A stretch of DNA of 64,000 nt from Mizuhopecten yessoensis. Taxonomy: Eukaryota. Below, in pieces: positions 26,280 through 63,053 of the stretch. The position numbers were made by a program, and so were the translations under genes. Numbering within the stretch: position 1 is the first letter of the stretch; the number at the start of each line of letters is the position of its first letter. The notes below the pieces were generated by a model. It made no database searches. It was not told the origin of the DNA and saw only the letters and a program-made list of their open reading frames with translations. The DNA is taken from NCBI RefSeq assembly GCF_002113885.1, contig NW_018408349.1:142945-206944 (forward strand), given 5' to 3'.

Positions 26280-27508
26280 GATATAAGGATGTACCTTCCA
26301 GTTCCACAGCTCTGGTATGCTTCCTGTTTAGAGGGTCTATAAAGTATTTCCTACACACGACAGGTTACATACATATTTTATATGTAAACACAGAACAGCA
26401 GCTCTCCGCTACTGTAATTGAGAAGAGTAGTACAGATCTGATAAGAATCAATATGTATGGTATACAGTTCTTGTCAACAGTAAACAGTCTCCATCCTTCA
26501 CGCGCCACTGACCTCGCTGAGTTGAGTCATACAAGTGTTCGTGTAAAATATATGCAACTATGTGATGTCAACAGTTCCAGTAGTGTTAGCTATTTAGCGG
26601 TTAGCTGAAGCTGCAGTCTGGGCAGATTGAAGCCATATCTTCTTCCTTACTATCGGTTAGAAACCACACATGCCATTCAATTGTAACCCCGTGTCGGAAC
26701 GGTCTTCAGGCAGGACGTTGTGTGTGTAATGGCACATAGAATATTCCAGTGCCCGAATTTAGCATAATTGATGCTCCTGACGTCAAAAGCAGCCTATTAT
26801 ATTATGTGTACGGGCAATTTTTACACCGGTGCCAACTCGCCCCGGATCAATAATACGTGTCTTCGTATGCGTTACATGCAATTTTCAAATGAACCTGTTC
26901 ATAGGACTAGCGAATAAAATACCCAGATCTCGTGTTCTTACAAGATAAATATTGTTATGCCACCAAATAATCAAACACTTCAGTAGGTCGTCCCATTTAT
27001 TGCATTAATAGGCCTAACTTGTGTTAATATTAGTATGCAATACTCTGAACAACTGTCCGTTCCATTCTCACCATATATATATGCGTCCACGTCTCACCTG
27101 AATTCAGTTTATAGGATATTTTGAAGTTCAGTTTATATATATATAATTACACATTGTCGGATTATTCAGGGTTTGGTTTCGACCCGCTTAGGTTTTGCAA
27201 TTCAATACATTGTGTGGGCAAAAATCAGAATGTTGTATTCCAAAAATATTTACAGTTGTATGCAGTATTTAATTTTGATAGATTAACATTTTCCTACAAA
27301 CTTTTTGTAATGTATACGCTAGCTCGTTCTCTTTGACGCCGGTCGCTGATGATCCCATTTACGCAGCAATTGAATACGGTAAAGTGGAAAAAATGTGATT
27401 TTTAGCCCTATTCAAATCACCCTGCGTCCGTGGTCCATCGTCCGTCCTTAAACAATTGTTATCGGTATTTCTCAAGAAGTACCAGAGGCATCTTTCTAAA
27501 ATTTTAGA

Positions 27509-29260: not shown

Positions 29261-31358
29261 AGAAATACTTAGATGTTTCATTCTCTGTTTAACATTATAA
29301 GAGATATGTGATTTCCATGTCTGTCCTCAGCATAGACTTGTTTGCCTGGTGATCACCTCTTATATTGTAACTGATATCTTAACTTGGTAAACTTTATGAA
29401 TATGATAGGAAGTTGTATTTTTCTGTAAGAGTTATTGCCCTTCGTTATCTCATTGCTCTCAACAAAACTTGGTATGTCTTGCTAGTATGACTTGTAGTAT
29501 CTTAAGTACAATGTAGCATTGTTCCTTATTGAACATTTTCTCAGGAATTTTTATACATTTTACTTTTTATACAAGAATCTAAGTCTTGAATGTGGTGTAC
29601 TTTGCCTTAACATGGTTCAGAATCATATACTATGATTCAGTCTCAAGTTGGGTGAATCTTGGTATGAGTTACTATCAATGCCATATTTTTATATCCTCTA
29701 TAGTGATATCTATATTCTACAAATGTTTACAATATATATGTGTATGGAAATATAGTTGATACAAACATTGGTCAACGTCCCTGGCAATATTAATATTAAT
29801 ATAATATTATAATACAAATAACAATAACGTTAGACTTTACTCATAAACGAGTTATTTCTTTTAATAAATATTAAATATAAATATTTGTCACGTCAGCATG
29901 TCCCTCTTCTCCCTCTTATTCAAGTTCTCTTTCTCTATGTTGATTCTATTCTTCCTTTAATTCTTCCATCTCTCGTTCTTTTCATTCTTAAAAACAGTTC
30001 CTATCACAATTATATGCAGTTACACTATTAACTACATATTGTTTTTATGTATCTTTAATATAGTGTTGATTTTTTGCTAATGACTAGAAATGGAGTGAGT
30101 GTGTGTATGTGTATGGAAAAATGAATTGTAAATGTATTATGTACTGTTAAAAAATCTTCAACAAAAAAGAAAATAATCAAAAAAAGAGGTAGGAACAGCA
30201 GATAAGTGTGTATCATTGCGATAATGAATGATTTTGTATGCAAGTATTCAAGTTGCCAGGTTCACGAGGATGTTGGACAACATGTAATGTATATTATATA
30301 AGTGTGAAATCTGGTGATTATCAATATAAATTTGTGGTTTTGTAAGGTATCCACTAGTTCAATACATGTATAAAATCCACGATTTGTCCTTCACAGATCT
30401 CAATTAATATTCATATGTAATATTTATGAAGTGCAGCGTTTCCAGAGTGATTTCTTGTCATTGTCATAAATTGTTAAGGTTCTATTCAACGTTAACATGA
30501 CTGATGGTTTGTTGTTCTTTTTATAGTTAAAGTTATAGTTTATAAGTTGGGCTTGACGTCTAATCAACACATAATTAGTGTTTTGCGGACTAGTACAGAT
30601 ATGGAGGATGAGACAGATAAGGCAGGAAAAGAGAAAGAACCTACATTGGTGGAAAAGTGATGGGATCGTGAGGATTTATCCTGATAAATGTTCAGTTTGA
30701 TATTGTGGAAGACACATCAAAAACGGCTGCATTGACAAGAAAGGGTATTTCAAATGTTCCTCATAACGTCCTGAATACTGTACAATGTTGTTTTACTTTT
30801 CAGGCGGCCCCATTACGCAATGTAGTCGCCTTGAATTTTATCAGGCATTGCCAATTCCCTCAGGTGTTAGTATGCGACGTTTTCGTGTTTTCAAGTTTCC
30901 TGCTCTTAGGATAGCAAAGAAAGTGACCAGGGAAGAACAGTAGAGACGAGAATTGATTCGGGGAGGAATTAAGGGTATTTTACACCTAGTAAAGAACTAA
31001 TTTTAATTATTGAACATAACTTTATATTTTAAAATTAAGCATGAAATAAATAATCAATGTTTAATGTGTGCCTGAATCATCCGAGCTACCCCGTTCCCTC
31101 CCTTCTTTCTATCTCTCTCTGTTATAGTTAAAAGTCAGGTTGTATATACGTTTAAATGTTTTTGTACTGATCTTTTCCGATGCTGACGGCACAAGAGAAA
31201 CGGATATTCAAGGACGAACGGAATGACAAGGAGGTAGCAAACCAAGGCACGGGAGTGATGGACAATAGTACAAGCAGAATGTATAGGAAAGTGTATATTG
31301 TCAACTTCTGCCATCAGTGTCGGAAAAGATTGTCCACATTATGAAAAAATACATTTTT

Positions 31359-31362
<4 letters not shown>

Positions 31363-31414
<52 letters not shown>

Positions 31415-31565
31415 GATATGTACAAATGGTTGTGTATATTGTATATGCCATCTTGAATTTTGTAAGTATATACAGATGTTTTATTTTAGGGAAAGGGCTT
31501 TAAATAAGTCGTACAACTTGTGCCCAATCCTGTTGCTATAAATGCAAGAAAATATGTTTAAATCA
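31363..31565 (+). mobile_element. 3' tail remnant of a LINE related to the 51848-56845 element, with a (CT)n tract
   Basis: gggaaagggc..taagt...aacttgtgcccaatcc...atgtttaaat matches the 56763-56838 tail. Confidence 0.65.
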
Positions 31566-33578
31566 AAATAATCCCACCTATGTTTTTCCACATCAGAAGG
31601 CATGTCTTTCAAAATTGACAAGAGATATTCTGCATCCTCCTCGGCGGTTAAATTCCCAACAGCCCGCCTTACGTCTCTCTCTAGACAAAGAATTCTATGG
31701 AAAGAATGAAGATTAGATTGGTGCTGCTTTATCCAATCAATAACGGTTATTAGGACATTTGATCTTATTCTGTGGTGCAAAATGTCCGTCATCTGTCCCA
31801 ATAACTTTTGTTTAAATGCCTTTTTCAACAGTCAATAAATAAACTGATTTTGACCAAACTTTGTAGTGAAGTATCATTGGGTGTATAGGTGTTTGTATTT
31901 ACCTAACGAAGGCATTTAAGGAAATCGGAGAAAAAAAATGAAAAAATATGACTTTTTGAAGTTCCCAAAAAATAGAGCATTTCCCAGTGAAAATTAATTA
32001 TAAAAATTCTAAATTGCGTTCCGACACCACTTTTAAGGCTCTGGAAAAAAAAAAAATATATCAAAACTGCCATGTTCAATTCCAATTAAATGAAGATTTG
32101 TTTATTCTTATTGAAAAAAAACCCAGACGTGAATAACCGATTTCCACATTACTTAGAAGAAACATATGATGTAGAAATCGGTTATTGTCTGTCTTTTTTT
32201 CAATATATTATTAGTCATAACATTTGTATTTATTTTAAATATCAAAGGCATCAACTATGAAACGATTTTTCTGATTGGCCAGTGCATTTACCATTGTAAC
32301 GCGTTAGATGTGAATTTTAACGAGTAAGAAGTGACTTTTAACGAGTTAAAAATATTTTAACGTGTAACTTTTACATTTGAAAAAGTAACGCGTGACAAGT
32401 GATTTTTAACGCGTTAAATGCACTTCTAACGCGTTGAAAGTAAGTTTTAACGCGTTAAAAGTCACTTCTAACGCGTTACTTTTTTAACGCGTTACTGTAT
32501 ATCGTTTTTTGCCCGAACCGCCACCCATATACATTCTTATATTCTCTTTATCCATATAATCTATTGATATTCGCGTGTGAATATTTTCGTGCTAATTTTA
32601 TTCAATGTATAAATCATGAACGTATTCTGAAGGTACGTCACATGAAACTCCCTTGACCCCGGGATTAATCTCTGTTTTGTAGGGGCTCGTAAAATATTTC
32701 CTTTCAGTTGGCGTCACCAAGCTTTAGGACGATTGAGTACGTCACAGGGTTGGGGAGCTCACACAATATATTGTAAATGTGTAGTATGGTGACATTGACC
32801 TTTGATATAAAATGCTGACACGTGAACAATGAAGTGAAACTTATTTCTTCGTTTGCGCATTAATTGGCCAACTAATACAAAATGGTAACATACTTAATGC
32901 GTGTTTTACTATTAACTAAAGGAATTCTTAACAACTGACCATTGACGACTTATACCCTATTTTATGCGTTTTGTTCTCATTAATTGCAGGATATTTTAAC
33001 ATCGAACCAAAATGTTCATTCCAAAGGGATTTTATCTTTTTCTCTGAACTGGAAATTCAGATAACTATTTGTTGTGTTATTGTGCAATAGCGCTACATTT
33101 TCTCTGTCGGGTGTATAAAAAGAGCCACGAACTGGTTCGCATTCAAAGAAAGAATGAGAACTATTAAAACTAGTTCGTACGTTTGCTCCTAAAATCCTAA
33201 CGACACAATTCCGAGAAGTATAATTCTATATTTGTATCACGGACACTGACATAAGACGTGTAATTTAGTGTGAAGTTCAAAGTTGTACCTTAAACTATTT
33301 GGATATTGGCATGTAGACTGTAATTCCAACAAAGCCAATGCGCAGAATAATTAAGTATGCTGCAATATGTTAACCTGAGTTATATTTAAAGTTGTTTCCG
33401 ATAAACGATCGAGACACTTCTATCAACACCGAGTGCCTCATTAATCTCCCGTATGAACTACCGAAAACGGTCTACAGGAATATACCTCGCCTGACTCTCT
33501 CCAAGACTTCTCATCTACTTTTCGTCTAGAATTACCAAGTCTAGTATAGAAGAAGATATGCCGTCATTGTCTATAGTA

Positions 33579-33680
33579 CCAGTCCAGTCAACAGTTCTAA
33601 AAGTGAAGTGAGACAACAAGAAATACCAGATTTCGAGTTGAAATGGAGCAAGGAAGTAAGGTACATAAAATTGATATCTT
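33579..33680 (+). pseudogene. Diverged copy of the PPP1R15 large-exon 3' end (SPVNSSKSEVRQQEIPDFELKWSKE) with donor sites
   Basis: Ungapped by-eye alignment of 56/72 nt to the gene (SPTNGCESDKRQQEILDVNLKWS), followed by taag|gtacat as in the gene. In-frame TAG upstream at 33542. Confidence 0.7.
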
Positions 33681-33799
33681 AGTCTGGTTTACGTTATTTA
33701 CTTCCTTACCACATACAGTTATACTTATATCTCCACAAGACAGTAACATCGCCCTGCCCTTTATCTTCACTACCCGTTAAACCAGTCTTTTTGAACATA

Positions 33800-36700
33800 T
33801 ATTCACAACCAAGTCCCCTTCAATCTTCCTCTACTCACCACCACGTCCCCTTTCGTCTTCCTCTATTCACTATCACGTCCCCTTCAGGCTTCCTCTATTC
33901 ATCTATTCACCACCACGTCCCCTTCAATCTTCCTCTATTCACCACCACGTCCCCTTCAATCTTCCTATATTTACCACCACGTCCCCTTCCTTCCGTCTTC
34001 CTCTATTCACCACTACGTCACCTTCANNNNNNNNNNNNNNNNNNNNNNNNNNNNNNNNNNNNNNNNNNNNNNNNNNNNNNNNNNNNNNNNNNNNNNNNNN
34101 NNNNNNNNNNNNNNNNNNNNNNNNNNNNNNNNNNNNNTTACGTCCGCTTCCGTCGTCCTCTATTCATCTGTTCACCATCACGTCCCATTCAATCTTCCTC
34201 TATTCTCCACCACGTCCCCTTCCGTCTTCCTCTATTCACCATCCCGTCCCCTTCAATCTTCCTCTATTCACCACCACGTCCCCTTCCGTCTTCCTTTATT
34301 CACCACCACGTCCCCTTCCGTCTTCCTCATTTCACCACCAGGTCCCCTTCCGTCTTCCTCTTTTCATCACCANNNNNNNNNNNNNNNNNNNNNNNNNNNN
34401 NNNNNNNNNNNNNNNNNNTCTTCCTCTATTCACCACCACGTCCCCTTCCGTCTTCCTTTATTCACCACCACGTCCCCTTCCGTCTTCCTCATTTCACCAC
34501 CAGGTCCCCTTCCGTCTTCCTCTATTCACCACCACGTCCCCTTCAATCTTCCTATATTCTCCCTTCCGTCTTCCTCTTTTGACCACCACGTCCCATTCAA
34601 TCTTCCTCTATTCTTCACCACGTCCCCTTCAATATTCCTCTATTCACCACCACACCTCTTCAGTACTCTCTTATTTACCACCACGTCCCCTTCAGTCTTC
34701 TCTTATTCACCACCACGTCCCTCTTCAATCTTCATCTATTCAACACCACGTCCCCTTCAATCTTCTTCTATTCACTATCACGTCAGATTCAATCTTCCTC
34801 TCTTCACCACCACGTCCCCATCCGTCTTCCTCTATTGACCACCACGTCCAATTCATTCTTCCTCTATTCTCCACCCCGCCCCCATAATATTCCTCTTTTT
34901 ACCACCACACCCCTTCAGTCCTCTCTTTTTCAGCACCACGTCCCCTTCAGTCCTCCTCTATTCACCATCACGTCCCCTTCCGTCGTCCTCTATTCCTCTG
35001 TTCCCCATCACGTCCCATTCAATCTTTCTCTATTCTCCACCACTTCCCCTTTCGTCTTCCTCTATTCACAACTACGTCCCCTTCCGTCTTCCTATCTATT
35101 CTCCACCACGTCCCCTTCCGTCCTCTCTTATTCACCACCACATCCCCTTCAATATTCCTCCATTCACCACCGCACCTCTTCAGTTCTCTCTTATTTACCA
35201 ACACGTCCCCTTCAGTCTTCTCCTATTCACCACCACGTCCCATTCAATCTTTCTCTATTCTCCACCACTTCCCCTTTCGTCTTCCTCTATTCACAACTAC
35301 GTCCCCTTCCGTCTTCCTATCTATTCTCCACCACGTCCCCTTCCGTCGTCCTCTATTCCGTCCCCTTCAGTCCTCCTCTATTCACCATCACGTAATATTC
35401 CTCTATTCACCACCATGTCCCCTTCTGTCCTCTCTTATTCACCACCACGTCCTCTTCAGTCCTCTCTTATTCACCACCACCACACCCCTTCAGTCCTCTC
35501 TTTTTCAGCACCACGTCCCCTCCAGTCCTCTCTTATTCACCACCACATCCCCTTCAATATTCCTCCATTCACCACCGCACCTCTTCAGTTCTCTCTTATT
35601 TACCAACGCGTCCCCTTCAGTCTTCTCCTATTCACCACCACGTCCCTTTCCGTCTTCCTCTATTTACCACCACGTCCCCTTCCGTCTTCCTCTATTTACC
35701 ACCACGTCCCCTTCCGTCCTCTCTTATTCACCACCACCACACCCCTTCAGTCATCTCTTTTTCAGCACCACGTCCCCTCCAGTCCTCTCTTATTCACCAC
35801 CACATCCCCTTCCGTCTTCTTCTTTTCACCATCACGTCCCCTTCAATCTCCCTCTCTTCCCCACCACGTCCCCTTCCGTCCTCTCTTATTCACCACCACC
35901 ACACCCCTTCAGTCCTCTCTTATTCACCACCACGTCCTCTTCAGTCCTCTCTTATTCACCACCACCACACCCCTTCAGTCATCTCTTTTTCAGCACCACG
36001 TCCCCTCCAGTCCTCTCTTATTCACCACCACGTCCTCTTCAGTCCTCTCTTATTCACCACCACCACACCCCTTCAGTCCTCTCTTATTCACCACCACGTC
36101 CCATTAAATCTTCCTCTATTCACCATCACGTCCCCTTCCGTCTTCTTTTATTCTCCACCAAGTCCCCTTCCGTCTTCCTATATATTGTCCATCACGTCCC
36201 CTTCCGTCTTCCTCTATTCTCCACCACGCCCCCATAATATTCCTCTTTTCACCACCACACCCCTTCAGTCCTCTCTTTTTCAGCACCACGTCCCCTTCAG
36301 TCCTCTCTTATTCACCACCACATCCCCTTCCGTCTTCTTCTATTCACCACCTCATCCCCTTCAATCTTCCTCTATTCACCACTACGTCCTCTTCCGTCTT
36401 CCTATATATTGTCCATCACGTCCCCTTCCGTCGTCCTCTATTCATCTATTCACCACCACGTCCCATTCAATCTTCCTCTATTCTCCACCACGACCACTTC
36501 CGTCTTCCTCTATTCTCCACCACGTCCCCTTCCGTCTTCCTCTATTCACCACCACGTCCCCTTCAATCTTCCTCTATTCACCACCACGTCCCTTCAGTCC
36601 TCTCTTTTTCAGCACCACGACCCCTTCAGTCCTCTCTTATTCACCACCACGTCCCCTTCCGTCTTCTTCTATTCACCACCTCATCCCCTTCAATCTTCCT

Positions 36701-39700
36701 CTATTCACCACCACGTCCCCTTCAATCTTCCTCTATTCACCACCACGTCCCTTCAGTCCTCTCTTTTTCAGCACCACGTCCCCTTCAGTCCTCTCTTATT
36801 CACCACCACATCCCCTTCCGTCTTCTTCTATTCACCACCTCATCCCCTTCAATCTTCCTCTATTCACCACTACTTCCTCTTCCGTCTTCCTATATATTGT
36901 CCATCACGTCCCCTTCCGTCGTACTCTATTCATCTATTCACCACCACGTCCCATTCAATCTTCCTCTATTCTCCACCACGACCACTTCCGTCTTCCTCTA
37001 TTCTCCACCACGTCCCCTTCCGTCTTCCTCTATTCACCATCACGTCCCCTTCAATCTTCCTCTATTCACCACCACATCCCCTTCCTTCCGTCTTCCTCTA
37101 TTCACCACCATGTCCCCTTCTGTCCTCTCTTATTCACCACCACGTCCCCTACAGTCTTCTCTTATTCATCACATCACCTTCAGTCCTCTCTTATTCACCA
37201 CCACGTCCCCTTCAATCTTCCTCTATTCACCACCACATCCCCATCCGTCGTCCTCTATTCACCGCCACATCCCCTTCCGTCTTCCTCTATTTACCACTAC
37301 GTCCCCTTCCGTCGTACTCTATTCATCTGTTCACCACCACGTCCCATTAAATCTTCCTCTATTCACTATCACGTCCCCTTCCGTCGTCCTCTATTCATCT
37401 GTTCACCATCACGTCCTATTCAATCCTCCTCTTTTCACTATCACGCCCCCTTCCGTCGTCCTCTATTCCTCTGTTCACCATCACGTCCCATTCAATCTTC
37501 CTCTATTCACTATCACGTCCCCTTCCGTCTTCTTCTATTCATCTATTCACCACCACGTCACATTCAATCTCCCTCTATTCACCACTACGTCCCCTTCCGT
37601 CGTACTCTATTCATCTGTTCACCACCACGTCCCATTAAATCTTCCTCTATTCACTATCACGTCCCCTTCCGTCGTCCTCTATTCATCTGTTCACCATCAC
37701 GTCCCATTCAATCTTCCTCTATTCTCCACCACGTCCCCTTCCGTCTTCCTCTATTCACCACCACGTCCCCTTCCGTCTTTCCTATTCACCATCCCGTCCC
37801 ATTCAATCTTCCTCTATTCACCATCACGTCCACTTCCGTCTTCCTCTATTAACCACCACGACCTCTTCAATCTTCCTCTATTCACCACCACGTCCCCTCT
37901 CGTCTTCCTTAACATTCACAACCACGTCCCCTTCAATCTTCCTCTATTCCCCACCACGTCCCCTTCAATCTTCCTCTATTCACCACCACGTCCCCATCCG
38001 TCTTCCTCTATTGACTACCACGTCCAATTCATTCTTCCTCTATTCTCCACCACGCCCCCATAATATTCCTCTATTCACCACGACACCCCTTCAGTCCTCT
38101 CTTTTTCAGCACCACGTCCCCTTCAGTCCTCTCTTATTCACCACCACATCCCCTTCCGTCTTCTTCTATTCACCACCACATCCCCTTCAATCTTCCTCTA
38201 TTCACCACTACGTCCTCTTCCGTCTTCCTATATATTGTCCATCACGTCCCGTTCCGTCGTCCTCTATTCATGTATTCACCACCACGTCTCATTCAATCTT
38301 CCTCTATTCTCCACCACNNNNNNNNNNNNNNNNNNNNNNNNNNNNNNNNNNNNNNNNNNNNNNNNNNNNNNNNNNNNNNNNNNNNNNNNNNNNNNNNNNN
38401 NNNNNNNNNNNNNNNNNNNNNNNNNNNNNNNNNNNNNNNNNNNNNNNNNNNNNNNNNNNNNNNNNNNNNNNNNNNNNNNNNNNNNNNNNNNNNNNNNNNN
38501 NNNNNNNNNNNNNNNNNNNNNNNNNNNNNNNNNNNNNNNNNNNNNNNNNNNNNNNNNNNNNNNNNNNNNNNNNNNNNNNNNNNNNNNNNNNNNNNNNNNN
38601 NNNNNNNNNNNNNNNNNNNNNNNNNNNNNNNNNNNNNNNNNNNNNNNNNNNNNNNNNNNNNNNNNNNNNNNNNNNNNNNNNNNNNNNNNNNNNNNNNNNN
38701 NNNNNNNNNNNNNNNNNNNNNNNNNNNNNNNNNNNNNNNNNNNNNNNNNNNNNNNNNNNNNNNNNNNNNNNNNNNNNNNTATTCAATCTTCCTCTATTCT
38801 CCTCCACGTCCACTTCCGTCTTCATATATTCACCACCACACCCCTTCCTTCCGTCTTCCTCTATTCACCACTACGTCATCTTCAGTCCTCTCGTATTCAC
38901 CACCACGTCTCCTTCAGACCTCTCTTATTCACCACCACGTCCCCTTCCGTCTTCCTCTATTCACCACCATGTCCCTTTCCGTCTTCCTCTATTCACCATC
39001 AAGTCCCCTTCAATCTTCCTCTATTCACCACCACGTCCCGTTCAATATTCCTTTATTCACCATCACGTCCCCTTCTGTCTTCCTCTAATCACNNNNNNNN
39101 NNNNNNNNNNNNNNNNNNNNNNNNNNNNNNNNNNNNNNNNNNNNNNNNNNNNNNNNNNNNNNNNNNNNNNNNNNNNNNNNNNNNNNNNNNNNNNNNNNNN
39201 NNNNNNNNNNNNNNNNNNNNNNNNNNNNNNNNNNNNNNNNNNNNNNNNNNNNNNNNNNNNNNNNNNNNNNNNNNNNNNNNNNNNNNNNNNNNNNNNNNNN
39301 NNNNNNNNNNNNNNNNNNNNNNNNNNNNNNNNNNNNNNNNNNNNNNNNNNNNNNNNNNNNNNNNNNNNNNNNNNNNNNNNNNNNNNNNNNNNNNNNNNNN
39401 NNNNNNNNNNNNNNNNNNNNNNNNNNNNNNNNNNNNNNNNNNNNNNNNNNNNNNNNNNNNNNNNNNNNNNNNNNNNNNNNNNNNNNNNNNNNNNNNNNNN
39501 NNNNNNNNNNNNNNNNNNNNNNNNNNNNNNNNNNNNNNNNNNNNNNNNNNNNNNNNNNNNNNNNNNNNNNNNNNNNNNNNNNNNNNNNNNNNNNNNNNNN
39601 NNNNNNNNNNNNNNNNNNNNNNNNNNNNNNNNNNNNNNNNNNNNNNNNNNNNNNNNNNNNNNNNNNNNNNNNNNNNNNNNNNNNNNNNNNNNNNNNNNNN

Positions 39701-40140
39701 NNNNNNNNNNNNNNNNNNNNNNNNNNNNNNNNNNNNNNNNNNNNNNNNNNNNNNNNNNNNNNNNNNNNNNNNNNNNNNNNNNNNNNNNNNNNNNNNNNNN
39801 NNNNNNNNNNNNNNNNNNNNNNNNNNNNNNNNNNNNNNNNNNNNNNNNNNNNNNNNNNNNNNNNNNNNNNNNNNNNNNNNNNNNNNNNNNNNNNNNNNNN
39901 NNNNNNNNNNNNNNNNNNNNNNNNNNNNNNNNNNNNNNNNNNNNNNNNNNNNNNNNNNNNNNNNNNNNNNNNNNNNNNNNNNNNNNNNNNNNNNNNNNNN
40001 NNNCATTCACCACCATGTCCCCTTTGCTTTTCACTGTTTACCACCACGTCTCCTTTGCTTTTCACTGTTTACCACCACGTCCCCTTTGGTTTTCACTGTT
40101 AACCACCACGTCCCGTTTGCTTTTCACTGTTTACCACCAC
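33800..40140. repeat. Pyrimidine-rich ~32-bp satellite (tcaccaccacgtccccttccgtcttcctctat) with assembly gaps
   Basis: Direct tandem repetition; four N-gaps inside the array. Confidence 0.95.
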
Positions 40141-41090
40141 TAAATGTATGATTAGTTCTAGATACTGATTATTCTCAACTTCTTTAAGTATTAAGAAGGA
40201 TATTGACAAAGGCGACCATGAACTGAAAATCAAGGTCACTTAAGAATATTTTACATCATCAGCCGTTTATTTTTATCTAATATGCCATGAAGACAATTGC
40301 CAATATATAGTTGATATCACGATATCATTGTAAAATGTCTTATATCCTATTACGACATAAATATGGACTCTATATCATTTAAGTTTCAGTACTTTAGGTT
40401 TGATATCACTACCCCCATTCTCGCACTGAGGGCGTGACATTTTACATCGAAAGGTGATTATCCTTCTTGAACACCAGGGTCTGTATTCATGAAACTGTTA
40501 CCATGCTCAAGCTAAGATTCTGTGCTCAGACCCATTTTTTTGCTTTGGAGATAACGTAGTAAAAATTCGTATTTTTCTATACTCTGGGAGACTTTTGGAG
40601 AGAGATAAAGCTGTATACTGTTTTCAATGATTACGCATGGCATTTTTATCGTGTCACATTATTTGAGTAATAATGGTTTCATGAACGAGTGCCCTGGTCT
40701 TATTGTTCCATTGTCAACGGTATCTGTAAATCATTCGTTTGTTAACATTTTGGCCTAGTGTTATCTGCTTATTTCTGTTTAAGACTTCATTTAACCTTTC
40801 TTCTTGCTCTCCCTCCTTATACGCAATGGTTCCATTCTTGGTACTTTCCTTCAGAACTGCCTTGTAATGTTACGTATGGTCCTAAAATTCCCTCTGCTTT
40901 AAGCTTCTTTCAGACATCTCTGCCTGGTCCTCTATGTGTTTGTTTTTTTATCATTTCTTGAGTTCACATTTACTTTCTTGACAACACCGCAACACTGACG
41001 CCCGCCCCTCTCCTCGTCACTTACACCCGTTCTCGACTGCAGTCGTTGTTTCATGTTTGCCCTCTCTTTAGCTCCTTACAATAACCTATC

Positions 41091-41369
41091 TTTCTGGTGT
41101 CCTTTGATAGTGAGTCTGATGACTTTTCAGGAGACAGTGGTGATGATTTTTCAGATAGTGATGGAGTAGATGAGCTGGACTTTTTCTCCTGTCCATTACA
41201 ACTTAATGTGTTTTGTCCTGTGAAACAACCTATGGCTACCAACTCCCCTAAGGAACCCAGTCCAACCAACGGTTGTGAAAGTGACAAGAGACAACAGGAG
41301 ATACTGGATGTTAACTTGAAATGGAGCATGAACTTTTCTATAAGTCAACGGGAAAAATCCAAATCTAAG
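41091..41369 (+). pseudogene. PPP1R15: Inverted partial duplicate of PPP1R15, penultimate-exon 3' part (in-frame ATG at 41232); pseudogene or mini-gene
   Basis: 277/279 nt identical to 61168-60890 (revcomp); intact donor gtacgt at 41370; in-frame TAA at 41082. Confidence 0.85.
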
Positions 41370-42899
41370 GTACGTACACATGAAATTGATACCTCGTAAT
41401 GAATATGACAAAAGTTTATCTTTCCGATAGGTTTAATGTCCCCTCCGTTTAATCGGCTATGTATCTTTGGGCTGTAAAGTTCACAAATGTTGCCTGATAT
41501 ATCGAATTCGAAAAGATGCAGACGTGTACTTTTGACACACTTTAAAATAAATTACGTCAGTTGTCAAACACTTTTAGTAGCAGTGTTTGCACTGGTTATT
41601 GTCATCAATAAAGGGACTATTTCCAGCTATGTTAAAATTACATAAGAGCCTGCCCCCTCATAACTTTTGGTTCAGAAGTGCTTCGAGATTTATGCTGCTG
41701 TTTTAACTTTTTTTCAATCCCTTATACATCAGAGTTATTACTTTGAATCACTCTTCTAATTATTTAGATGATTAATTAACCTTATTACAGCATGAGTGTC
41801 GAAAAATGGAATATCAGCCTGAAAGTATTTTTCTGAAAAAAACCCATATTTTTTGCAACGTAATACTTGGGAAAGACATTTTCTTTCATGTAGTGCTTTA
41901 ATACATTTATCATCCAGAATGCGAGTTTAATCGAACATTTTGTGAACATTTTAATGTAAAATCTCATTATTCCTGTATACCAAACATTTTCATAGTATGA
42001 AGAAGTGGTGTTATTTTAAATATATATGCAAAACTTCAGTCCAAAAAAGTGGTGGAAAGTATTCATTTCGCACAACAAAGTACCCTGTGTACCCAAAAAG
42101 GTGAGGGCACAGACACCTCCCTGGCGTCCACCAAAAAAACAATGCACCTGATAACAGGTAATTAATGAAATTCGTTGCAAGTCTACAATAAACCTTTCAG
42201 TGCATGTTAGGTCACAAACAATTCCAAATTCCCATCTATTTCATCACTTGGCGCGATTGATAAAGGTTTTGTTAACAATTAATTTTGAAATAAAATGTAT
42301 TTTTTTGTCACTTTTTAGAATCTGTTCTTATACATTTTGTTATCATTTTTCATACATTTTATCATCAGACATTCGTTTTTACATTGCTTTTAGAGGATAT
42401 TTCATATTCATTTGTTAATATTCATCTCATAATGAAGAGTAAATGTATTGATGAAGGTCGCCATCGTATTTTCGCGAAATCTCGTAAATGTAAAGGTACA
42501 CGAAATGTAAAAACAAAATCCATAATATAAATGGCTTTTGGATATACTGACTAAAAGTGGCATAAATTGCTCAAATGAGTTAGTATTTGCGCAAAAGAGA
42601 ACCTGAAACAGAACGTTTTTAAGAAGAAACTGCTAGAAGTTTTTTTGTCTCGTAACAATCAAGGACCTGTTTTACGGGTCCTGTTCACATAAAAATGTTG
42701 TCTTTCTTTTAACGATTTGAATTCGAAGGGAAGCAAATCCACAAAAACGTGCCAGGCATCAGTTAATTTTCACACACAAATTGTGGTGTTATGCGTCATC
42801 ACGTGTATGTTCATTTCATCTTATTGGCAATGACCTAAACCCTTGCATACAGGTTATCCTATAAGGAAGAGAGTGTTTGAACTCTCAATTATGAAGTAG

Positions 42900-44100
42900 G
42901 TCATCTGAAATAATTGATGACCTTTTAGAAGTGTCGCACATTGTATCAAAGAATCAATCAGCCTTCACTCTCAATTTTTGTCTCTTGGATTACCCTGACT
43001 GCAAAGCTTGGACAGGTTGGTCAAAGTACAGTTTCTCAAAATCCATACGTAATGTGTCCCATTTCTTTCTTATTAAGGATATACCAAAACTACACAAAAT
43101 GCTCTTTTACCGTTTTGGGTTAAGATGAAAACTGATATCTCATGTAATTAAGTGTTCCGCTCTTTTTGGCATTTCCCGGCCTAATATTTCGAAGACCTTT
43201 CATTCTGTAGAACAAGCATTGAATAAATCTATAGTTCCAGTGTTCCCTGGTCCTGACCATTTGAGTAGGGGNTGTTCCTTGGTCCTGACCATTTGAGTAG
43301 GGAACATATACTTTCACAAATACTTTATTATCAGAAACATTCTTTGGAGACAAAGTGACTGCCTTAATAGATGGTACAAATATTTATATTACATCATAGA
43401 CAAGCTCACATGGTTGGAGCAAGACGACAATGTAGTCGTTGATCGTGGTTTTAGTAATATCCTGCCAACGTATGGGGCATCTGTTACTGATACCAGTATG
43501 TACTCATATCTTAAGACATGTCAGAGACAACACTCTGATCTACAGGATAACATTGACAGAACAGTTACCAAATCCCGATGGATTGTAGAGTCTTTTTATG
43601 GCCGTATTAAGCATTGGATAATTTTTAGAACTCAATATCAAATTGCTTCATTGATATAATTGAGGAAGTGCTAAAGATTGTGACTGCATGTCTCAATTGG
43701 ATACGGGGACCAATTTATCATAGACCACCGAAACTGACATAAAAGACAGAGAACTCGCACATCAAATAAAGTGTATACTCAACCAGCTCATTCCAAGAAA
43801 GCAAACTCAGAATTCGTAAAGATTATGAAATATGGGTGAATCGGCACTATCAGGGCTCCTATGTTGCCAGATTTGTTCCAGAAACAACAGCCAAACTAAA
43901 TACAATGTTTGGATTCAGTACAGCACGACACCAAATGATAATAATCTAATAAAAGATTACTACTGCCAATGCCCAGTTGGTCAAAGAACTATGGGAATGT
44001 ATGCTCCTACATCAAGTATACTTTATTATCTTGGCTATCATAGCAATCTTTAAAATCCAAAACAATTGCACCCAAGGGCTAAGAAGTTCCGACAAAGCTT
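42900..44100 (+). mobile_element. Degenerate DDE_Tnp_4-type (PIF/Harbinger-ISL2EU-like) transposase with C-terminal SWIM-like zinc finger
   Basis: ALIDGTNIYI (~43360), VVDRGF, RTVTKSRWIVESFYGRIKHW and YYCQCPVGQRTMG...SILYYLG; stops, frameshifts and an internal deletion. Confidence 0.75.
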
Positions 44101-44278
44101 GAAATAAGTTGTTTTCTTGAGAATCTAGAAAACAAACTCAAAGCCTCGCAACCTTTTTTTCTTCTTTCTTTTTTCCGAGTCTGCCATTCGAACACATACA
44201 TGTATCATACTCTTGCATCTTGGAAAAAATTATCTGTAAATGTCATCAGATGTTAATACGGCGTCTTACTTTAATAAA

Positions 44279-45230
44279 GAGGTATGGCGGAAAACTGCCC
44301 GTATTTCCATAAGTCGGCATTTATGAAAACGGAGAAAAAAATTAAGGAGTAAAACAATTCGTGTAGCCAAAATGCATACAAAAGATACAAAACCAATTGA
44401 ATATGATTTTTTAAACTGCTGAGAAATTATGTATTGCTAATATGATACTGCAAATATAGCCATATACACTATATCTATGAAAGTGATGGGGTTTCCCGGA
44501 CTTAAAAAAATACTTTCAACACTTTCCCATCCGAGGACCAACTTTTGAATAAACTTTTTGTGACCGTGATGTAATATGCAAAAACAAATCGTATTACGGA
44601 AAAGTGGTCCTCCTTTGGGAAAGTGCTCAATTAATGAAAAACAGGGGTGATCAAGTTTCTCTAAACTGCGACCAGTGTTTCTCGGGTTAAATCAGTTTGT
44701 AATTGCCAATATCGATATGTTCTATGTAGCCGAATGTGTAACGCAGTTTACTTGTGATTAGAAAATAAACGGTGCAGGTTCGAATCCTCCTTCAGTTATT
44801 TTTTATTTTAAATATTTAGGCATGTTATCATTTTCCTTAATAAGGCATTGGTGTTTTGCTTTTTTTAAATCGATGGAAGATTTTGTTTACATTTTAATGA
44901 CATACTTCTATCGAAGCATGTCAACAAATCCCTGTACACGTGTACAGTACAGCTACGCTTTGTAGGTAAGACACTATTTTTGATGAAATTTATGAATTGT
45001 TTTACCCTCCAACTGGCAATAGTAAGTATATCAAGTGCTTAAACACCAACAAATAATGCCGAATTACCAAATATGTGGTCTGTTTACAATAATCTATTCT
45101 TAGACACGGGATTCCGATATTGCTACCTGTATAAAAATACCTGAGGACGCGTCATAACAGTGCACGGTTGGATGCGCGCACTAGCGTACCATAGCTTTGG
45201 GGAAATAGGCATAGCAACCCGCCATATCTC
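44279..45230 (+). mobile_element. MITE copy A (GAG(G/C)TATGGCGG TIRs; AAA|element|TTT junction, Spy-like)
   Basis: Inverted termini; homologous in reverse orientation to 46831-47912. Confidence 0.75.
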
Positions 45231-46028
45231 TTTATAAAAACAAAGTAACAAACAAACATGCAATCTCTGAATTCCATTGATATTGCAAGAAAGTTGTCTG
45301 AGAATCTGACAACTGATAAGGCAGTAGAATGAATTTTGATGGCCATCTTGAAAAGGGATAAACCAACGATTTTTTTCCAAAAATGTTCTCCATTGATTAA
45401 ATTCTTCATTTCTGTCAGTTTTCAGTTATAACGATTAGACTACATGAATTCTGATGTATAGACCCTATGGTCATTTGATCCCTTCTTTGAATATGTTCCA
45501 CCACATATTTTGGATTGATATTTTTGTCACTGGTAGTTCATAATCTAGTCCTTTTATAATCAAAATATTTTTGGTATACAAAAGTTATAAGATACTTTTA
45601 GTCTAAGATGACCACACATTTTGTCTGGAAAATATCATTGCTTGAGATGGCTTCCGACTGTTGATTTGTTTGTAAATATCTGATAACTCACTATAGAGAT
45701 TTTTACATGTATACTGTAGCATATATTCCCTAGTTGTGGTTGCATCATAAATGATCCTTCAATGCATTATTAGTTTGACAACATTCGACTTTTGGGGGGA
45801 AACTCTTGACCTTTTGAGAATTTCAGTTTTATGCTCTTACGAAAAACGAAGTGCTCATTTGAAATTTGGTTGGTGTTTTTGTTGTGATAAGGTTTAGGTC
45901 TACACCTCACCAAAAGAAAATTGAAATCAAAGGAGGGGCCATTTTGGAACCCCTCACCCCCTTTCATCTCGCAAAAAAATATTTACGAAGACTTTTTTTA
46001 TATTTAAAATGACCTAAACATTTTGCAG

Positions 46029-46226
46029 GTGACTTTTGCTGAGGGAGACCAGTTGTGTACAGTATATGATTTGGATGATGAAGACCGGAAATCACACTGG
46101 GAGGAATGTGTCCGTGATAGGGAACGATTTCAACGCCGAATTACTGAAGTGGGGGAGATCATGAAGCCTGTGTTATCGATGGAGAGAAGAGATAGAATTT
46201 ATCACCAATATTTAAAACAGAACTGA
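46029..46226 (+). pseudogene. PPP1R15: Inverted duplicate of the PPP1R15 terminal coding exon (VTFAEG...RDRERFQRRI...QN*); pseudogene or mini-gene
   Basis: Identical to 60448-60251 (revcomp); intact ttgcag acceptor; identity continues into the 3' UTR to ~46280. Confidence 0.88.
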
Positions 46227-46830
46227 AGACAGACTACGATACAGATGATGACTAGAGACTGAGGTTATAATGTGATGGTTGATATATAAGTACATACATT
46301 TAGAGGCCATTGTATTTCTTGATTCAGGTTTACTGATGATTACTGTGTATCATTGGTAATAGTTAATAGACCGCAAGAGGCCCCAGGGACCTGAAGCCGA
46401 TCGTCTAATGTAGTATTTCTGTTTTTTACTCACTGCCAACACGCTTTTGGTCAAAGCTCGTTATTCCAAGTCTTTTTCCTTCTTCAGAGGAAGTCATTTG
46501 GGTATATATTTGTTAAGGTTGTTTCTTTCCGGAAAATGTTTAGCTATCTATTTCGGTAAGCTAGAGGCCAAATAGCATGACGATCCCTGTAATCTTTAAA
46601 GTGTCCAGCTTATTTTACCTTGAATGAATGTCAAAGTTATTTCTGTTCTCCAATTTTGTTGCACGCCATACTAACAACAAGCCAACCTACATGATTCTAG
46701 AAATCGGTTTCCCTGAAGGAGTCATTTTCACAACATCGACTGTGAATATGGGTTAAGGTCATTCCTTTTTGCAAACTTTGAAGCACTAGATGGCAAAATT
46801 AAACAGAATGTATTTGAGTATTTCGACAAA

Positions 46831-47912
46831 GAGCTATGGCGGATTGCTATGCCTATTTCCCCAAAGGTGAGACCACTAGTGCGAGCGTGCCACCGTGTAC
46901 TGTGATGACGCGTCCTCGGGTATTTTTATACAGGCAAACAGCCGAATTCAACGCCGTGGCTATTGGTGCATGCGTTTCACGATAAAGACTCAACAAAATG
47001 CTTATTTCGCGTTATTTCTATGAATTTGAAACAAATAATATGCTGTATGTAACAATCGTAGGATTTAATTATCATTACTGCTACCTGCGTCATGCCGTTA
47101 CCTGCATCTTACAAAAAAACACATCTTGATTTTGTTTTTTCTGCACATATGAATGGCAAAATGATATAAATAATTTTCGAATAGCATGACTCACACGTGT
47201 ATTGCGATTCTTACTTTGTGCTGCAGTCATCCTGCATTTCAAACAAATGAAACTATCCTCAACGATCAATTTTCCCGTATTTTTGGTAATATATTTGTGA
47301 TAATAACACTTCATATTGTTTGTTTGGCCTTCTTTTATTGTGACGCAACAATCCCACACAATCCATCATCATTTGTTTGTGTTTAAATAATAGATAAGAT
47401 TACAAGTGCCAATTAGAAGGAAAAATAATTCATAAATATCTTTTAAGATGATGTCTTATCTACAAAGCGTAGCTGTACTGTACACGTGTACAGTGATTTG
47501 TTGACATGATTCCATAGAAGATAAATCAATAGGTATGTAATTAAAATACAAATTAAATGTACTATTGATTTGAAAAATATTTTATTAATTAATTAAGGAA
47601 AAAGAATACGATTTTTTCTTTTGCATATTACATCACGGAATAAAAAAGCTTATTCAAAAGTTGGTCCTCGGATGGGAAAGTGTTCAAAGTATTTGTTTAA
47701 GTCTGGGAAACCCCATAATTTGGCATAGATGGATATGGCTATATTTGCAGTATCAAATTAACAATACCCTATATCTCAGCAGTTCAAATATTCATAACCA
47801 ATTAGTTTTATATCTATTCTATGCATTTTCGCTGCTAGAAATTATTTACTAATTAATAAAAAATTTCCGTTTTCATAAAAGCCGAAATATTGGCAGTTTT
47901 CCGCCATAGCTC
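46831..47912 (-). mobile_element. MITE copy B (same family, opposite orientation)
   Basis: GAGCTATGGCGG...CCGCCATAGCTC termini; shares internal blocks with copy A (e.g. ctgtacacgtgtacagtacagctacgctttgtag). Confidence 0.75.
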
Positions 47913-47938
47913 TTGACCATCTTAGTTTAGTTAACTCA

Positions 47939-49001
47939 CAAGCACAGAAATCAGTGTTTGCTGTCTATAAGAAATTGAGAAACATATCTTTACCAGTTGA
48001 TCTACAATTGAAGATATTTGATTCATTAATTATGCCAGTTCTTCTGTATTCATCAGAAATATGGGGTTTTGAAAACACAAATATTATAGAAAAAATCCAT
48101 CTTCAATTTTGTAAATATATACTAAATGTAAGAAAAAGTACACCAAATTTCATTGTTTATGGTGAGCTTGGAAGATACCCACTAGACATCGAAATTAAAT
48201 GTAGAATAATAGTATTCTGGCATAAGTTGATTACCTCTAGTAAGTTATCAAGTACTATTTATAAGCTTATGTATACATTACATGAAAATGGAACTATGTT
48301 ATTTAAATGGCTCGCATATGTTAAAGATATTTTTTCTCAAACTGGCCTGAACTATGTGTGGTACTATCAATCTACATGTTCTTTTTCAAAAGACGAAATT
48401 AAGAGGCTTGTGAAAAGTAGACTGAAGGATCAATTTATACAGAAATGGTTTGATAATATTCTTAACTCCTCTAGAGGACAAACATATTCAATATTAAAGA
48501 CAAAGTTTGAACAAGAAAAATATTTAATTAAACTTAATACAAATGATAGGAAAATAATGTGTAAATTCCGTTCTTGCAATATGCATTTACCCATAGAAAA
48601 AGGAAGATGGTTAGGTATTCCTCGTCAAGAAAGAACCTGTACATTATGTAATTTGTACATTGGAGATGAATTTCATTACTTATTTATATGTGAAAGTGTT
48701 TTAGTTAAATGTCTAAGAGAGAAATATATACCAAAATATTATTTCACTTATCCAAGTCAATTAAAAATGCAAGGATTGTTTAATATATTTAATGTAAAAA
48801 TTTACACAAAACTTTGTAAATTCATAGAAAAGCTTGAAAAAATATTAACTTAATTTCTGTACTATTTGTGTACTTCTATATGTATCTATGCTATGTACAA
48901 TGTTGTAATTGTGTACATCACACGCCATGTATCATACTTACTATATGTATGTGACCTCTTGTTACACACGTAAGTGTGTCGGAGTGAATAAATAAAACTT
49001 A
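47939..49001 (+). mobile_element. 5'-truncated non-LTR retrotransposon (RT C-terminus plus CCHC finger; ORF 47954-48853) inserted into a 90-bp MITE
   Basis: LKIFDSLIMPVLLYSSEIWG, VYGELGRYPL, LPIEKGRW...RTCTLCN..IGDEFHYLFIC; aataaa tail; aactca duplicated at both ends. Confidence 0.88.
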
Positions 49002-60250: not shown

Positions 60251-60448
60251 TCAGTTCTGTTTTAAATATTGGTGATAAATTCTATCTCTTCTCTCCATCG
60301 ATAACACAGGCTTCATGATCTCCCCCACTTCAGTAATTCGGCGTTGAAATCGTTCCCTATCACGGACACATTCCTCCCAGTGTGATTTCCGGTCTTCATC
60401 ATCCAAATCATATACTGTACACAACTGGTCTCCCTCAGCAAAAGTCAC
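60251..60448 (-). CDS. PPP1R15: PPP1R15 (GADD34/CReP-like) terminal coding exon: PP1- and eIF2alpha-binding domain
   Basis: Splices as K|VTF (RVxF motif), followed by R..HWEE..RDRERFQRRI.E....KPVL, the GADD34/ICP34.5 homology domain; acceptor ttgcag. Confidence 0.92.
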   Translation of the reverse strand: MTFAEGDQLCTVYDLDDEDRKSHWEECVRDRERFQRRITEVGEIMKPVLSMERRDRIYHQYLKQN

Positions 60449-60889: not shown

Positions 60890-62755
60890 CTTAGATTTGG
60901 ATTTTTTCCGTTGACTTATAGAAAAGTTCATGCTCCATTTCAAGTTAACATCCAGTATCTCCTGTTGTCTCTTGTCACTTTCACAACCGTTGGTTGGACT
61001 GGGTTCCTTAGGGGAGTTGGTAGCCATAGGTTGTTTCACAGGACAAAACACATTAAGTTGTAATGGACAGGAGAAAAAGTCCAGCTCATCTACTCCATCA
61101 CTATCTGAAAAATCATCACCACTGTCTTCTGAAAAGTCATCAGACTCACTATCAAAGGACACCAGAAAGGAATGCTGTTGTAATGGACTGACAGGTGAGC
61201 TGTTGGAATTTATGCCAAGTAGAAATGCCACCGTATTGGCAGACCCTGAGTTTTTAGTTGTACCTGATCTCGCAGATGAACCCTTTTCTTTACATTTTTT
61301 TTCCTGTGATCGAGTTTTCTGTTCATTGTTTTTTGCTTGGCAGCTGGGGATTTCGGATAGATCTTCTTTTCTAGCCTTGGAACGCCTTCGCTTCTTTGCT
61401 GATGGACGGCATCCCTTTTTATGACTATTTCTAACTAATAGCACAATTCTTCTTGCATAGTCTTTATCTAAATCGGAAGGCTCACTTTTCTTCTCTGCAC
61501 AATTAGAACTTTGTGGTGACTCTGTATTAGACACTCCAACAGGGATTTTACGATGATCATCTTTTGAGCAAGACTGATGTTCATTTGGCTGAATTTCTGA
61601 TGATGTTCCATTGTCTTTATTTGTAGGTATTAAATCATTTTCCTCAAACATACAGGTCACATGAATCACATTGTCATCTGGTTGGAATATGTCACTTATA
61701 ACGGATGCTTCTCGTTGCAAAGTTTTGTTGTTAATTGACGAATCATTGGATGTTTCTGAGTCTATAGACACTGTCCTCACTCTGAAACCAATTCGCTGAG
61801 GAACGTCTGACCCCCCAATTTCTTCTGACTGATCACATTCAAACCAATCAATAATTTGGACAGATGCTGATTTGTGTCCATTGCTGCCTGCGTCAAGTTC
61901 TTTGCCTTTGGTGGCAGGGACTGTAGATATATCAGGCTTTTCCACTTTAAGTTGCAAGTCTTCACATGACTTTTTCTGACTTGGCATTGCACATTCAATG
62001 TTTATCACAGGCTTGGGAGTTTTATCATTGTCAATGACATTTTTGGAATGCGACAAAGTTTCACTAGTACTATCACTTCTTCTGAGAGGCTCTGTTGTAC
62101 TTTCCAACCTGTCTTGAATGATTAATTTATCATCTTGCAAAATGTTTTCTTGAGTGGGTTTTCTCCAGTTAGAACAATCACTTGGAACTCGGTCAGACGT
62201 GAATGAATATCTAGGTCGACGGCTGTACCTGTGTCCATCCACATGTTGTCCTCTATGAGAAGCCCTATTTGGGTACCTCTGTCCAAGATGGTGACCTGTC
62301 ACTGCTGGGTGGAATCCAGTTTTCTGATGCTGGAAATGCTTGAATTCTGGGGTACAAATGTTTGTAGAGTTTTTCAAATTTGAAAAGGCACAACTATTAG
62401 GCCGGGTTGGTGTTTTCTTGCGACAGCCCCAATGTGGGGCAGAGTATGGTGAGCTATGTGAATTCATAGCTTGTGTTTGGTTAAACTCATTCAATACAAA
62501 ATCACTTTCCATATTCATGGGCATAACGTTCGGTGCACTACTATAATTAATAAAACCTCTTTTAGTCCCATGTAATTTCATAAAAGCAGAGTCAAATAGG
62601 GTAGCCATGTCTGGTATGTATCTATCAGTTGAACAGCTGCCTGATGTAATTTCACCAGTACTGTCTAAACGCAAAAAAACTGGAGTTACGTGACCTTTTT
62701 CAGGTACGGGGTGTTTTTTGTCCTTACACCGCCATTTTGTCCCATATGGATTCAT
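60890..62755 (-). CDS. PPP1R15: PPP1R15 large coding exon (622 codons; full protein ~687 aa)
   Basis: Long Ser/acidic low-complexity ORF ending KSKSK|gtacat, in phase 0 with the terminal exon. Exact start codon uncertain. Confidence 0.85.
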
Positions 62756-62768
62756 AACCCGACACTAA

Positions 62769-63053
62769 TTAGTCATCCCATCCTGATCCGACAGCTTGAT
62801 ACGCGTTAATAACGAACATGTTATCTGAATAAGGGATAAGATAATCACACATTAAAACACTGTCACCCATAGGAGACATAAAGTTATGAAAATACCACTT
62901 ATGTGTATCGGCGAGAGCAGGATTTGTTCGAACAGCGTGTTGGTTACTATCAGTCAGATTAACAAACCTTCTTTTAAAAACACTCTTACAAAAATCTGGC
63001 TTCGTTGAATATGTGGTTGATATCCTTCTGTTTAATTCCGAATTCATCTTCAT
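62769..63053 (-). promoter_or_regulatory. 94-codon upstream ORF ending 13 nt before the PPP1R15 ATG
   Basis: ATG..TAA ORF out of frame with the main ORF; overlapping mini-uORFs ATGGGATGA and ATGACTAATTAG. Confidence 0.55.

Follow-up and report, generated by a model that had tools for sequence, protein, structure and literature searches.

The question raised by this locus is whether a scallop carries its own stripped-down member of the PPP1R15 family, built like the minimal adaptors of viruses, or whether a short reading frame has been kept intact by the gene next to it. The locus lies in a window of 64,000 nucleotides (nt) of contig NW_018408349.1 of Mizuhopecten yessoensis, which is the whole stretch of DNA analysed and to which all positions refer. 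The short frame (copy A) belongs to a partial duplicate of a complete PPP1R15 gene (copy B). The answer favoured here, tentative but quite possible, is that copy A is maintained by gene conversion, has weak or restricted transcription led by a transposon, and is a passenger without a selected function.

The 111-amino-acid (aa) frame of the original prediction is indeed present. It consists of 41232-41369 (138 nt, 46 aa) and 46029-46226 (198 nt, 65 aa and the stop), its ATG has the context CCTATGG, and splicing across 41369^46029 restores KSK/VTF (slashes mark exon boundaries). The splice sites are canonical (donor AAG/GTACGT at 41369, acceptor TTGCAG/ before 46029) and are intact, as had been noted, despite an intron filled with transposable-element remains, among them a DDE_Tnp_4 fragment (43297-43656) scoring under the Pfam cut-off and repeats at 44277-45233. 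The second exon matches Pfam PF10488 with 37.7 bits, above the gathering cut-off of 26.1. The first ATTAAA on its 3' side, at 46798, is a candidate poly(A) signal. These parts of copy A are:

41370..46028, plus strand: intron of copy A, 4659 nt of mobile-element debris (from sequence, Pfam and shuffle comparisons)
46029..46226, plus strand: last coding exon of copy A, with the PP1/eIF2 core (PF10488 match)
46281..46803, plus strand: 3' flank of copy A, weakly like the copy B 3' untranslated region (UTR) over about 90 nt and unique beyond

Copy B is a complete gene on the minus strand (62755-60890 and 60448-60251, 687 aa), and its product is identical in sequence to the M. yessoensis protein P0001 (XP_021367206.1). 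With a long acidic N-terminus and an upstream open reading frame (uORF) in its leader it is a full member of the PPP1R15 family, and its full-length relatives in other scallops have 688-707 aa. Its features are:

60890..62755, minus strand: first coding exon of copy B, 622 codons, expressed in all four RNA-seq runs aligned
60251..60448, minus strand: last coding exon of copy B, matching copy A exon 2 in sequence
62769..62879, minus strand: uORF of 36 codons in the copy B leader, seen in the sequence, stopping 13 nt short of the main ATG
61214..61237, minus strand: copy B motif NTVAFLLG, hydrophobic and conserved, for which copy A has no counterpart

It is clear that copy A duplicates copy B, which lies 14 kb from it, in inverted orientation and without the 5' part. 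Exon 2 has two copies in the genome, both within the window and inverted relative to each other. Copy A lacks about 530 N-terminal residues of its parent, together with the uORF and the motif NTVAFLLG, which sits 45 nt beyond the duplicated tract. It has the lineage-specific residues of copy B (RKSH, EEC and the Met) when compared with Argopecten, Ylistrum and P0002. The close identity is confined to two tracts:

41090..41373, plus strand: first homogenised tract of copy A, the same as copy B 61169-60886 at 282 of 284 nt
46023..46280, plus strand: second homogenised tract of copy A, the same as copy B 60454-60197 at 258 of 258 nt

Over these exon tracts, which take in silent sites as well as 54 nt of the 3' UTR, the copies differ at two of 542 bases, which at an assumed divergence of 25% has a probability of 3e-64 for two or fewer differences. 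Both differences change an amino acid: G in copy A and A in copy B give Gly and Glu at 41131, and Glu and Lys at 41352. The Gly is new in copy A, while the Glu at 41352 is shared with Argopecten and Ylistrum. The flanks are decayed. Only about 20 nt upstream of the tracts and about 90 nt of 3' UTR show a weak likeness, and the first approximately 270 nt of the copy A intron faintly resemble the 441-nt intron of copy B (4 of 200 shuffles scored as high). The end of the copy A intron shows no likeness to the copy B intron above shuffles, and upstream of about 41070 there is no alignment to the large exon of copy B. The duplicate is likely old.

Near-identical exons within diverged homologous flanks have gene conversion between linked inverted copies as their simplest cause, and this was preferred because fresh exons, silent sites included, in old flanks exceed what selection at the protein level alone would leave. 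In the mechanism that we propose, fold-back pairing of the inverted copies would drive the conversion, and the tracts would end where indels and insertions break the homology. The inverted Dlx duplicates of Capitella teleta, Dlxa and Dlxb, are described as mosaics of gene conversion with the same pattern (PMC3199776). Like copies A and B they are linked tail to tail, with near-100% identity over the conserved exon and divergence elsewhere; unlike them, both are reported there as whole genes, whereas copy A is truncated and has a borrowed, repeat-derived first exon. A C/A polymorphism at 46237 (60240 in copy B), in the shared 3' UTR, segregates among the four RNA runs and could serve as a marker in testing for polymorphism shared by the copies.

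A third, decayed copy of the tail of exon 1 looks like one that escaped conversion:

33500..33690, plus strand: copy C, third copy of the exon-1 tail and donor, decayed and frameshifted, 78% identity over 72 nt

No exon-2 remnant was found near it in 32530-33800, and one weak match to exon 2, 44 nt long and within a repeat close to 40590 (2 of 200 shuffles), was rejected. Copy C has an alternative donor, GAA/GTAAGG (33640-33665), that would give K-E-V-T-F when spliced to 46029, with no in-frame start before the donor.

Given the fragmented assembly (82,659 contigs), the N gaps nearby and tracts of read-pair size, exon sequence of copy B might have been placed into a gap-rich region of the scaffold by the assembler. 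Such an artefact is extremely unlikely: the old homology extends beyond the tracts, copy A has two bases that are essentially never present in copy B transcripts, and four 2025 runs from one sample contain 0.95-1.00 of the sampled words of 45950-46740, junction words among them.

Expression was followed in four RNA-seq runs, one from each of four studies, by aligning raw reads that make up 18-24% of the run to 40200-47100. The splice 41369^46029 occurs in 276 reads over the four runs, which were assigned to copy B. Indeed, base 41131 has the copy B letter in 318 of 318 reads (11, 23, 139 and 145 by run). The G at 41352, which had been put forward as the diagnostic letter of a copy A transcript, was almost wholly negative in all four runs, with the copy B letter in 392 of 398 reads (12/17, 28/28, 238/239 and 114/114 by run). 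Reads past 46280 had been named as the other test, and the copy A 3' flank at 46437-46667 has zero depth in every run. Among the loose ends listed, 220 reads at 41090 and 197 at 46280 continue as copy B, and the read depth in bins at the tract boundaries is no higher than copy B alone predicts. In the four runs, RNA of copy A therefore amounts to less than about 1% of that of copy B (a bound of 0.94% if the reads are independent). Expression credited to the short model in these runs belongs to the parent, and copy A confounds read mapping.

The start of the predicted protein is not supported. The frame is open upstream of ATG 41232 back to 41085 and 41090-41231 is also coding sequence of the parent, so that this ATG codes for an internal Met like any other, at residue 577 in the parent. 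An annotated model that fits better begins 10 kb upstream. The Met is missing in all six non-Mizuhopecten sequences aligned, from four lineages. Within the 120 nt ahead of it are five out-of-frame ATGs (41119, 41143, 41161, 41170 and 41206), so that entry at 41071 or at 41110 would leave a transcript with upstream ATGs. Copy A lacks the uORF of copy B and has these other short frames ahead of ATG 41232. The GC box that had been noted does exist:

41001..41007, plus strand: GC box CCCGCCC, one of 3 in the window against 0.65 expected, with no promoter support

Its surroundings are not CpG-rich, since 106 of 610 windows hold as many CpG, and over 40662-40892 three runs have no reads and run X23 has about one fragment's worth; a promoter at this box was rejected. 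The acceptor at 41071 is also real, with 15 of 18 pyrimidines, but it is one of 29 such sites in 57.6 kb and an in-frame TAA follows it. A 111-aa protein started at ATG 41232, from the GC box or by splicing in at 41071, is consequently very improbable. It has in its favour a good Kozak context, identity with a sequence already in GenBank (OWF43722.1, 'Protein DP71L') and an ATG at the aligned position of copy C; the five reads of run X19 with a base other than that of copy B at 41352, given that no read deviates at 41131, would be compatible with a start lying between these positions. Of the stripped-down antagonist idea, the loss of the parent N-terminus survives; a gene of 111 aa under the control of the GC box is not supported.

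The annotation offers a different transcript. RefSeq XP_021367213.1, a 185-aa 'PPP1R15B-like' protein, corresponds exactly to 31180-31280, 41111-41369 and 46029-46226, and begins within a repeat:

31180..31280, plus strand: first coding exon of XP_021367213.1, with ATGs at 31180 and 31258 and donor GTATAG
41111..41369, plus strand: second exon, which holds ATG 41232; its cryptic acceptor (41109-41110) lies within sequence that is coding in copy B
30180..32532, strand not assigned: multicopy interspersed non-coding repeat, with related copies that have long inverted ends (genome-wide matches)
33796..40140, strand not assigned: 32-bp satellite array with four N gaps, within the first intron of the RefSeq model (from sequence)

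The repeat has at least 92 genome-wide matches (40 of 96 candidates scored), mostly of 78-95% identity, and appears to be non-autonomous and DNA-transposon-like. The copy that holds 31180-31280 has the best donor of the five copies compared: the four others aligned read GTTTAG (twice), GGTTTG and GTTTTG at this position. The in-frame ATGs of such a transcript give 185, 159 and then 111 aa, and ATG 31258 has a strong context with no long upstream open reading frame before it within the exon. In the mechanism proposed, the repeat copy 10 kb upstream would have acquired a usable donor and would splice to the cryptic acceptor 41110; translation would first yield 185 or 159 aa, the ATG of the 111-aa form being only third in frame. 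Chimeric partial duplicates with exonised transposon sequence are a known general class. The RefSeq model shares with it the repeat-derived first exon, the cryptic acceptor and the in-frame duplicated tail, and departs from it in that the tail is a self-sufficient functional module, apparently synchronised with its parent.

Several observations weigh against a weakly transcribed passenger. In the read alignment, which covered 40200-47100, no read was seen that joins 31280, the end of the transposon exon, to 41111. Six reads have a base other than that of copy B at 41352 (5 of 17 in run X19, 1 of 239 in run X23); these may come from an allele of copy B and may not be independent. Fourteen runs from five studies, guessed and not recorded to be RNA and compared by word shares only, hold 0.59-0.90 of 81 sampled words of 45950-46740, where copy B alone would give 0.30 and spliced copy A running to the ATTAAA at 46798 would give 0.896. 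As a lead only, these shares fit a restricted expression of copy A, possibly substantial somewhere. Finally, tract ends fall within 20, 4 and 6 nt of the acceptor, donor and acceptor of copy A, which is what selection on its spliced product would leave; conversion templated by complementary DNA would also account for the two intron-side ends.

Some of the same data bear on whether copy A is transcribed at all. As a fully silent pseudogene, its frame would be kept by conversion alone, the RefSeq model would be a spurious or rare splice, and the word shares would come from DNA-type libraries or pre-mRNA. This is somewhat unlikely, although it agrees with the near-absence of copy A reads in the four runs, with the guessed nature of the 14 high-share runs, with a RefSeq first exon in a multicopy repeat prone to read mis-mapping, and with the fact that both differences between the copies alter the protein. 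It sits less well with word shares that cluster by study and reach a ceiling of 0.90, against 0.95-1.00 in four much larger, DNA-sized runs, and with the quality of the repeat donor and the six deviating reads at 41352.

What copy A would encode was compared with known PPP1R15 cores, and the core of DP71L/ICP34.5 kind claimed in the original prediction was recovered. It aligns to human PPP1R15B (4v0u_E, E 4.5e-08) and to DP71L of African swine fever virus (ASFV; 9nb9_B, E 1.6e-06). The eIF2-alpha motif, which we take to read W-x3-[AV]-x-D-R-x-R-F, is present with the C-terminal actin-binding helix (WEECVRDRERFQRRI...VLSMERRDR), and copy A has Ser instead of the usual Gly of RKG, as does its parent. 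The RVxF motif with the hydrophobic pair and Arg behind it (KVTF...TVY...DEDRK), for which the splice 41369^46029 is needed, aligns to 4v0u_E and includes the Arg equivalent to R658, in the PPP1R15B numbering of PMC10743859, where a single Drosophila gene is also described. With PPP1R15A (GADD34) and PPP1R15B (CReP), the family of PF10488, copy A has in common KVTF, DEDRK, W-EE-x-x-RD-x-x-RF and the C-terminal helix, and it differs in what was lost at the N-terminus. The vertebrate paralogues PPP1R15A and PPP1R15B are both long and long diverged, unlike copies A and B. If translated, the product of copy A would likely dock PP1 via KVTF and present phosphorylated eIF2-alpha with G-actin, like its parent.

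The missing N-terminal motif bears on how well such a product would work. The motif NTVAFLLG of copy B is likely the H1 helix that recruits eIF2. A position-specific scoring matrix (PSSM) built from seven distant matches detects it in copy B and in two further proteins from scallops (each at 2 of 200 shuffles) and passes 7 of 28 long matches outside the training set, while it finds no motif in the 111-aa or 185-aa models of copy A. Helix H1 is reported to be required for eIF2 capture by human PPP1R15B, and ICP34 and DP71L are described as conserving it (PMC7615683). A core of about 70 residues is described as sufficient in vitro, the extended human protein acting roughly tenfold faster on trimeric eIF2 (10.1101/2023.12.15.571226), and a distal eIF2-gamma-binding helix is reported as important in mammals (10.1101/2023.12.15.571226, PMC7615683). 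The product of copy A would be expected to recruit trimeric eIF2 less well than its parent and to act as a weak, core-only adaptor.

That copy A is a functional, tissue- or stress-restricted PP1 adaptor of 185 or 159 aa, expressed from the transposon exon free of the parent uORF and with its interfaces kept by conversion, is unlikely. The frame is intact over three exons with all core motifs present, ATG 31258 is well placed, the tract ends coincide with the exon ends of copy A, the word shares are suggestive, and the in vitro sufficiency of the core reported in 10.1101/2023.12.15.571226 would allow it. Nonetheless, the adaptor is not seen in the four RNA-seq runs, it lacks the H1-like motif that human PPP1R15B is reported to need for eIF2 capture (PMC7615683), and intactness is uninformative under conversion: an intact frame beside a converting parent gives no evidence of selection on the short product. 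No counterpart was found in the other scallop proteins searched, by word-limited or clustered searches. Among proteins under 377 aa, the two matches in 47 candidates are the copy A model and a 70-aa fragment without RVxF. In a second protein search, a 704-aa orthologue, a 70-aa fragment and one repeat-like protein are the three sequences that come nearest after the copy A model. Short cellular matches, mostly single-exon gene calls or unnamed proteins, were not used as evidence for mini-PPP1R15s; of four short ones that were looked up, three are unnamed and one is a tick model of 176 aa. A Pecten maximus model, P0126 (605 aa), stops before the core exon and has no PF10488, and is probably a mis-annotation or a split gene.

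Compared with ASFV DP71L and ICP34.5 of herpes simplex virus, copy A has the same core-only architecture and, if made, a predicted working mode of the same kind. The origin differs, as copy A arose by truncating the host's own gene. A viral origin is set aside because the two tracts are 99.6% identical to the adjacent host gene and the intron position is the same; the likeness to the viral proteins is read as truncation of a host gene and not viral descent, and copy A, judged by its sequence, is not a member of the viral mini-adaptor group. The spacing from Phe to Arg, counted from the alignment, is 17 residues in copy A, 14 in DP71L and 15 in PPP1R15B, so that copy A does not have the short linker credited with tight PP1 binding in DP71L (10.1101/2025.02.28.640897). 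The viral genes are highly expressed, while copy A is essentially silent in the four RNA-seq runs.

The surroundings contain further features. The uORF of copy B has four in-frame Mets and is a candidate for translational control dependent on the integrated stress response (ISR) within a mollusc. Inverted repeat pieces of 76-85% identity at 44277-45233 and 46828-47914, on either side of the last exon of copy A, could pair in pre-mRNA, and other loci express this repeat family. Separating copies C and A, the 32-bp satellite covers about 6 kb and is strongly skewed, and its N gaps could hide further fragments. Two remnants of long interspersed nuclear elements lie between A and B on the plus strand, one (53180-56620) with a 1146-codon endonuclease and reverse-transcriptase frame without stops, the other (47879-48853) a 324-codon 3' fragment. 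An intronless frame of 358 codons (25251-26327, minus strand) of seven-transmembrane type stands head to head with copy A's RefSeq model, which makes a promoter common to both conceivable; it has no Pfam match at E 0.1 and Atlas feature matches of 0.94-0.96 to Dicty_CAR/7tm_2-like receptors.

The sequence of copy A is already in databases. Among the literature matches listed, no account came up of how it arose through truncation, conversion and exonisation, nor any paper joining scallop with PPP1R15, GADD34 or DP71L; the 391-protein Table II of 10.1101/2025.02.28.640897 may include the 111-aa entry. Read as a passenger, copy A is a tidy if unremarkable example of a partial duplicate with conversion limited to its exons and an exonised repeat. 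It carries the warning that an intact frame adjoining its parent proves no selection, and that the label 'Protein DP71L' here denotes a domain match only. If the chimeric transcript is translated, the locus would be a natural test of whether a core of about 70 residues alone, lacking the distal eIF2-gamma-binding helix, ends the ISR in an animal cell. Less probably, the scallop may have built a DP71L-like ISR off-switch of its own, in which a transposon exon would turn on a uORF-free core of 159-185 aa while conversion by the parent would update the PP1, actin and eIF2 interfaces; if true, a gene of an animal host would have converged on the minimal design of viruses.

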